Shown: positions 44,159 through 44,268 of the stretch, piece by piece
Numbering within the stretch: position 1 is the first letter of the stretch
Layout of the letters: each line of letters starts with the position of its first letter
Assembly (NCBI RefSeq): GCF_030013595.1
Contig: NZ_CP122768.1
Origin: Escherichia coli
Lineage (GTDB): Bacteria; Pseudomonadota; Gammaproteobacteria; Enterobacterales; Enterobacteriaceae
Strand: one strand, 5' to 3'
Length of the DNA: 64,000 nt
Made by a program: the position numbers and the translations under genes
Notes under the pieces: generated by a model
Databases searched by the model: none
Told to the model about the DNA's origin: nothing
What the model saw: only the letters and a program-made list of their open reading frames with translations

Positions 44159-44195
44159 GGTAACCCCAATGGATTAAAATAGATGGCGGAAATAA

Positions 44196-44223
44196 GTATG
44201 ACGATTTTAAGTATTCGTCATAC
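44196..44223. promoter_or_regulatory. NikR operator in nikA promoter
   Basis: GTATGA-N16-TCATAC (gtatgacgattttaagtattcgtcatac), the dyad known to be bound by NikR. Confidence 0.8.
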
Positions 44224-44268
44224 TGATTACCTGTTCTGGATCAATAGATGGGCAGTCGGGTGGGCGGA

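Follow-up and report, generated by a model that had tools for sequence, protein, structure and literature searches.

The 110-bp region between acpT and nikA in the analysed stretch of E. coli DNA (64,000 nucleotides, hereafter the window) is predicted, with a probability of roughly 97%, to be the promoter-operator of the nickel-uptake operon nikABCDE-nikR, activated by FNR and repressed by nickel-loaded NikR. The region spans exactly positions 44159–44268, the operon is read on the minus strand of the window, and on that strand lies a perfect dyad of the form GTATGA-N16-TCATAC at 44196–44223 (in full, GTATGACGAATACTTAAAATCGTCATAC), which we assigned as the NikR operator from its unique exact match, its identity to K-12 and its agreement with the published operator. 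A preliminary description of this DNA had placed the dyad about 40 bp upstream of nikA, leaving the strand unnamed; the measured spacing to the nikA ATG (44158) is 37 nt, and a Shine-Dalgarno-like GGGG at 44164–44167 (minus strand) precedes that ATG by 5 nt. The symmetry reaches further than had been described, with 9-bp arms, AGTATGACG-N12-CGTCATACT, at 44195–44224, so that each arm is symmetric over one more base on the outside and two more on the inside. GTATGA-N16-TCATAC has a single exact match in the 64-kb window, where none is expected by chance, and none of 100 dinucleotide-preserving shuffles of the window contained a match. Allowing up to two mismatches added one further site in the window, located inside hicA and at chance level.

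The half-sites GTATGA and TCATAC are equal to those of the published E. coli NikR operator, which is defined as GTATGA-N16-TCATAC and for which Ni(II)-NikR has nanomolar affinity (PMC7055735); a mismatch at this point would have spoken against the preliminary description. Expression of nikA is repressed by nickel via NikR and needs Fnr (PMC9434800). Comparative genomics has given the enterobacterial NikR consensus as GTATGAT-N13/14-ATCATAC (PMC545781, citing Rodionov and co-workers), with which the site shares the GTATGA/TCATAC core and the 28-bp span, whereas arm position 7 is C/G in E. coli and E. albertii (GTATGAC...GTCATAC) instead of the consensus T/A. The nikA promoters of Superficieibacter and Pluralibacter carry the consensus T/A at this inner arm position. 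An inverted repeat, a location at a nickel-uptake promoter and an encoded cognate NikR, which together characterise an E. coli-type NikR operator, are all present in the window.

Alignment with the nik promoter of K-12 MG1655 (NC_000913.3), the check proposed along with the preliminary description, showed 110 of 110 intergenic positions to be identical, and the flanking genes have 95.0–98.1% nucleotide identity to K-12. Because both the intergenic region (110/110) and the NikR protein (133/133) are identical, operator and repressor are the same as the experimentally defined K-12 pair, and we read the dyad, by its sequence, as the known NikR operator of the E. coli nik operon acting with the same repressor as in K-12. 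The NikR operator of the K-12 nikA promoter, PnikA, and the complex of NikR with DNA have both reportedly been characterised. Relative to that K-12 operator, there is no difference here in promoter bases, NikR protein or operon organisation, whereas the nik structural genes differ at 2–5% of nucleotides and at 0–7 amino acids, and the 3′ neighbour of the operon is hicAB instead of the rhsB of K-12. Nickel-dependent NikR binding and repression in this strain would follow published K-12 work on the identical sequence.

A 301-bp query around the site (window 44100–44400, comprising the 110-bp intergenic region and 191 coding bases) had a match in 5425 of the 5426 complete E. coli genomes, each time in the acpT-nikA interval, which identifies the window as E. 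coli chromosome. The 110-bp intergenic query had at least 99% identity in 5198 of the 5425 genomes; with its coding flanks, the 301-bp query reached at least 99% identity in only 9. Selection on the acpT-nikA intergenic region is, as far as sequence comparison can tell, visible in the E. coli population. Outside the species, the dyad is kept at the same place in the nikA promoters of E. albertii, Superficieibacter electus and Pluralibacter gergoviae, whose NikA proteins are 98%, 86% and 82% identical, respectively; these loci were picked for carrying the dyad, and the comparison therefore bears on the conservation of the FNR box and of the spacing, not on that of the dyad itself.

Across bacteria, we scanned 298 Gb with the pattern AGTATGA-N16-TCATACT and took a sample of 120 occurrences. 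A nikR and/or nikA homologue adjoins the pattern in 28 of the 120, and no nik gene lies nearby in the other 92, which are compatible with chance because the pattern has only 14 fixed bases; chance matches in 298 Gb are estimated at about 1,000, so that only the 28 nik-linked loci are informative. These 28 come from gamma- and alpha-proteobacteria and from one verrucomicrobial genome, and their inner arm position is usually T/A. The same dyad was also observed about 20–100 bp from the start of a nikR homologue in many alpha- and gamma-proteobacteria, often where no nikA of the E. coli type is close by, in genera including Bradyrhizobium, Devosia, Tardiphaga, Halomonas and Pannonibacter and in Pseudomonas asuensis (sampled loci L009, L034, L047, L063, L067, L072, L073, L083, L098, L106, L115 and L118–L120). 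This arrangement suggests an autoregulated nikR, or divergent nickel-transport operons, using the same half-sites.

A search for an FNR site upstream of the operator, likewise proposed at the outset, was positive and yielded a candidate box, TTGATccagAACAG, at 44231–44244 on the minus strand. It agrees with 8 of the 10 consensus positions of TTGAT-N4-ATCAA (two mismatches), its TTGAT occupies 44240–44244, and its centre at 44237.5 lies 28 bp upstream of the dyad centre. Matches of that quality number 53 in the window against 34 expected, so the pattern by itself is weak, and the assignment draws on position, on ChIP-seq from K-12 and on conservation across genera. Four genera share TTGATCCAG..CAG without variation and at a fixed distance from the dyad, and the bases around it diverge. 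In K-12, whose sequence here is the same as that of the window, nikABCDE is listed among the operons that FNR activates directly, and a ChIP-seq peak precedes nikA, with the best site at -40.5 (Myers et al. 2013, PMC3688515); the supplementary tables of that study list nikABCDER as FNR-activated. Between aerobic and anaerobic growth, nikA-E change about 16–33-fold and nikR only about 3-fold (PMC3688515, Table S12). The smaller oxygen response of nikR fits an additional, oxygen-independent promoter for this gene. Such a promoter has reportedly been described for nikR.

Because the FNR centre is published at -40.5, transcription would start at about 44197 (44237.5 minus 40.5), an A on the minus strand within the promoter-proximal NikR half-site TCATAC, and the -10 hexamer would be TAAAAT at 44204–44209, inside the operator spacer; both positions derive from the published distance and not from a mapped 5′ end. 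A sigma-70 consensus scan of the intergenic region found no -35/-10 promoter. Such an outcome is to be expected where transcription depends on an activator and is not counter-evidence, because class II FNR-activated promoters lack a -35 element. The TTGAT-N4-ATCAA-like box near -41.5 that marks a class II FNR-dependent promoter is present, with the reservation that the pattern match alone is weak. Class II FNR promoters such as dmsA, narG and yfiD have in common with nikA a box near -41 over the -35 region and anaerobic induction (PMC3688515). Unlike them, nikA has a box that is degenerate in its downstream half (AACAG instead of ATCAA) and a core promoter that appears to be embedded in the operator of a metal repressor. 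FNR-dependent anaerobic induction would carry over to this strain from the K-12 literature.

The identity of operator, promoter and repressor with the characterised K-12 system, the gene organisation and the conservation are observed here, and on this basis we propose the following mode of control. When oxygen is absent, an FNR dimer, whose occupancy and position are taken from the literature, would sit at TTGATccagAACAG with its centre at -40.5 and activate transcription or recruit RNA polymerase to a promoter with the -10 hexamer TAAAAT and without a usable -35. Once nickel in the cytoplasm is sufficient, the nickel-loaded NikR tetramer, its nickel-dependent binding again being known from the literature, would bind the GTATGA and TCATAC half-sites through two ribbon-helix-helix domains. 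Polymerase would then be excluded, because the half-sites flank the -10 hexamer and cover the predicted start, and nickel import would stop. The repressor would be partly autoregulated, because the operon ends with nikR. Nothing that we saw in the sequence speaks against the region being a NikR-controlled promoter-operator.

Three other readings of the dyad were weighed. The one that survives best holds that it is shared with, or mainly used by, NarL, which would bring about nitrate repression through a NarL-type heptamer over the promoter-proximal half-site. A perfect match to TACYYMT, TACTTAT, lies on the minus strand at 44198–44192 and overlaps the predicted start; on the window-wide density, 0.04 matches are expected per 110 bp, and one was found at the nikA promoter. 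Control of nik by FNR and NarL, with nitrate repression depending on NarL and NarX, has reportedly been observed, and Superficieibacter has a perfect heptamer, TACTTCT, at the same spot when the sequences are aligned. Against this, a single heptamer carries little information, Pluralibacter has the non-fitting TACTTTA at the same position, and control by NarL would supplement control by NikR, not substitute for it. We found no mapped NarL site at the nikA promoter in the accessible literature. We treat the heptamer as speculative and a role for NarL at the dyad as a possibility that probably does not hold. Somewhat more doubtful still is the idea that the 28-bp operator might be a hub of three regulators, at which NarL and NikR would repress through overlapping DNA, competing or cooperating.

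It is distinctly improbable that the dyad serves, additionally or instead, as a terminator-like RNA hairpin for acpT, which is encoded on the same strand and ends 45 nt before the dyad. The RNA does fold into a 10-bp hairpin with UUAUUU behind it (-15.6 kcal/mol; z = -5.7 relative to shuffled sequences); however, every perfect 9-bp palindrome folds in this way, the loop is 10–12 nt long, the U-tract is short and interrupted, and the terminator scan did not flag the site. The hairpin would also lie upstream of the predicted nikA start and thus be irrelevant to nik mRNA, and the conservation, with fixed half-sites and a free spacer, is the pattern of a protein-binding site. By folding in this way, the dyad could still incidentally attenuate read-through from acpT. 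That the dyad is palindromic by chance, or is some generic inverted repeat rich in A and T that regulates nothing, can be dismissed almost entirely: short palindromes do, trivially, occur in intergenic DNA, but none of the 100 shuffles produced this one, it hardly varies across 5425 E. coli genomes, its half-sites adjoin nikR or nikA in distant bacteria, and its identity with the biochemically defined, characterised K-12 site led us to reject this reading.

The genes downstream of the NikR operator encode a complete nickel importer and its repressor, all on the minus strand. The periplasmic nickel-binding protein NikA (42584–44158, 524 aa) was assigned from its SBP_bac_5 domain (E = 4e-99) and from the RefSeq annotation of matching genomes. 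It is followed by the permeases NikB (41640–42584, 314 aa) and NikC (40810–41643, 277 aa, with a GTG start), by the ATPases NikD (40046–40810, 254 aa) and NikE (39243–40049, 268 aa), and by the nickel-responsive ribbon-helix-helix repressor NikR (38836–39237, 133 aa; RHH_1, E = 8e-12, and NikR_C, E = 1e-27). NikABCDE importers comprise a periplasmic binding protein of family 5 together with two permeases and two ATPases, in the gene order A-B-C-D-E, and this whole set is present here. The upstream neighbour acpT (44269–44856, minus strand) encodes a 4′-phosphopantetheinyl transferase, as judged from its ACPS domain and RefSeq annotation.

The preliminary description had held that the nikABCDE genes overlap by 1 to 4 nt, that nikR follows immediately and that the operon is intact, and each of these points was borne out. 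The start of nikB overlaps the nikA stop by 1 nt (TAATG), nikC overlaps nikB by 4 nt (GTGA, including the GTG start), nikD overlaps nikC by 1 nt (TAATG) and nikE overlaps nikD by 4 nt (ATGA), and a gap of 5 nt separates nikE from nikR. Because these four stop/start junctions overlap, translation of NikA-E is likely to be coupled, as we infer from the gene arrangement. All six genes have their K-12 length and are free of internal stops. Residue for residue, NikB, NikC and NikR are the same as in K-12, whereas NikA differs at 2 residues, NikD at 3 and NikE at 7; protein identity to K-12 across NikB-E is 97–100%, with matching lengths.

On the 3′ side of nikR, K-12 homology stops at 38830, 6 nt beyond the nikR stop, and restarts at the yhhJ stop, 38012. 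The gap between nikR and yhhJ is 817 bp in the window compared with 6.7 kb in K-12, where it holds rhsB, yhhH, yrhC and yhhI, which agrees with the earlier remark that the rhsB element is absent and that a hicAB-like pair takes its place. The pair consists of a hicA-family toxin gene at 38085–38360 (plus strand, 91 aa, PF07927, E = 2e-9), convergent with nikR, and a hicB-family antitoxin gene at 38357–38716 (plus strand, 119 aa, PF05534, E = 2e-15), which overlaps hicA by 4 nt. RefSeq annotation of the matching genomes names a HicA family toxin and a HicB family antitoxin. The two domains are adjacent, co-oriented and above the Pfam cut-offs, with the toxin first, as in type II HicAB systems, a function here predicted from sequence; such systems likewise combine HicA_toxin and HicB Pfam domains, place the toxin gene first and have a 4-nt overlap. 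Unlike them, the HicA protein here, at 91 aa, has about 29 residues before the Pfam domain. The HicA_toxin domain covers only residues 30–80 of the gene product, and the protein is either extended by about 29 residues at its N-terminus or in truth begins at a codon further downstream. Just upstream of hicA, at 38024–38051, is a promoter-like TTGACT-16-TACTAT. The hicAB pair of K-12 is presumably at a different chromosomal site from the pair described here.

The hicAB stretch is present in the nikR-yhhJ gap of 2075 of 5426 complete E. coli genomes, and this junction varies among strains: K-12 carries the 6.7-kb rhsB element, O157:H7 carries hicAB together with a 5.8-kb island of PTS, aldolase and GntR genes, and the window carries hicAB only (38013–38835). 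The homology of O157:H7 and of certain other strains to the window breaks off at about 38727, directly after hicB. Between the convergent hicB and nikR stops, at 38771–38803, we observed an AT-rich hairpin with a perfect 15-bp stem, AACTGAACTTAATTT-TAT-AAATTAAGTTCAGTT, which the scan flagged as terminator-like and which lies within the segment that genomes with the extra PTS island lack. It could be a bidirectional terminator or the remnant of an insertion target.

At the other end of the window, positions 1–8404 form a chu/shu haem-uptake island inserted beside dctR; a comparison with the neighbouring 36 kb of K-12 (3,636,000–3,672,000) did not find it there. The island includes genes for a TonB-dependent haem receptor (5345–7327) and a ChuS-like protein (7376–8404) on the plus strand, and, on the minus strand, chuT/shuT (start 4662, end 3748), ChuX/HutX (1884–2378) and a permease (220–1212). 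The region upstream of chuT is present in 2236 of 5426 E. coli genomes. The pig-derived E. coli NZ_CM149870.1 (locus L125) is 100% identical over the 301-bp acpT-nikA query, and its collinearity with the window no longer holds at a distance of 40 kb, where its 317421–327000 segment carries a sil/cus copper-silver resistance island in place of the chu region. Just one FNR match in the window has no mismatches, the perfect consensus palindrome TTGATTTTTATCAA. It lies at 4770–4783 in the chuT-chuA intergenic region (4663–5344), upstream of the annotated start of chuT/shuT by about 114 nt, and is invariant in four sampled chu loci, O157:H7 included. A Fur-box-like sequence, AATGATAATCATGATCATT, is located between this palindrome and the chuT ATG. 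Among the products of the chuTWXY operon are ChuW and ChuY, enzymes that degrade haem anaerobically (PMC9002310), and activation of chuTWXY by FNR would therefore make sense; the chu-regulation paper PMC9002310 makes no mention of direct FNR control of chuT.

NikABCDE is the nickel importer that supplies the [NiFe] hydrogenases. The NikR operator and the nik operon described here are already known in every respect, and the 3′ flank of the operon is a known kind of strain-to-strain variation. For the organism, the finding means that the nickel importer of this strain is intact and would be under standard control, with repression by NikR in response to nickel and activation by FNR when oxygen is absent.
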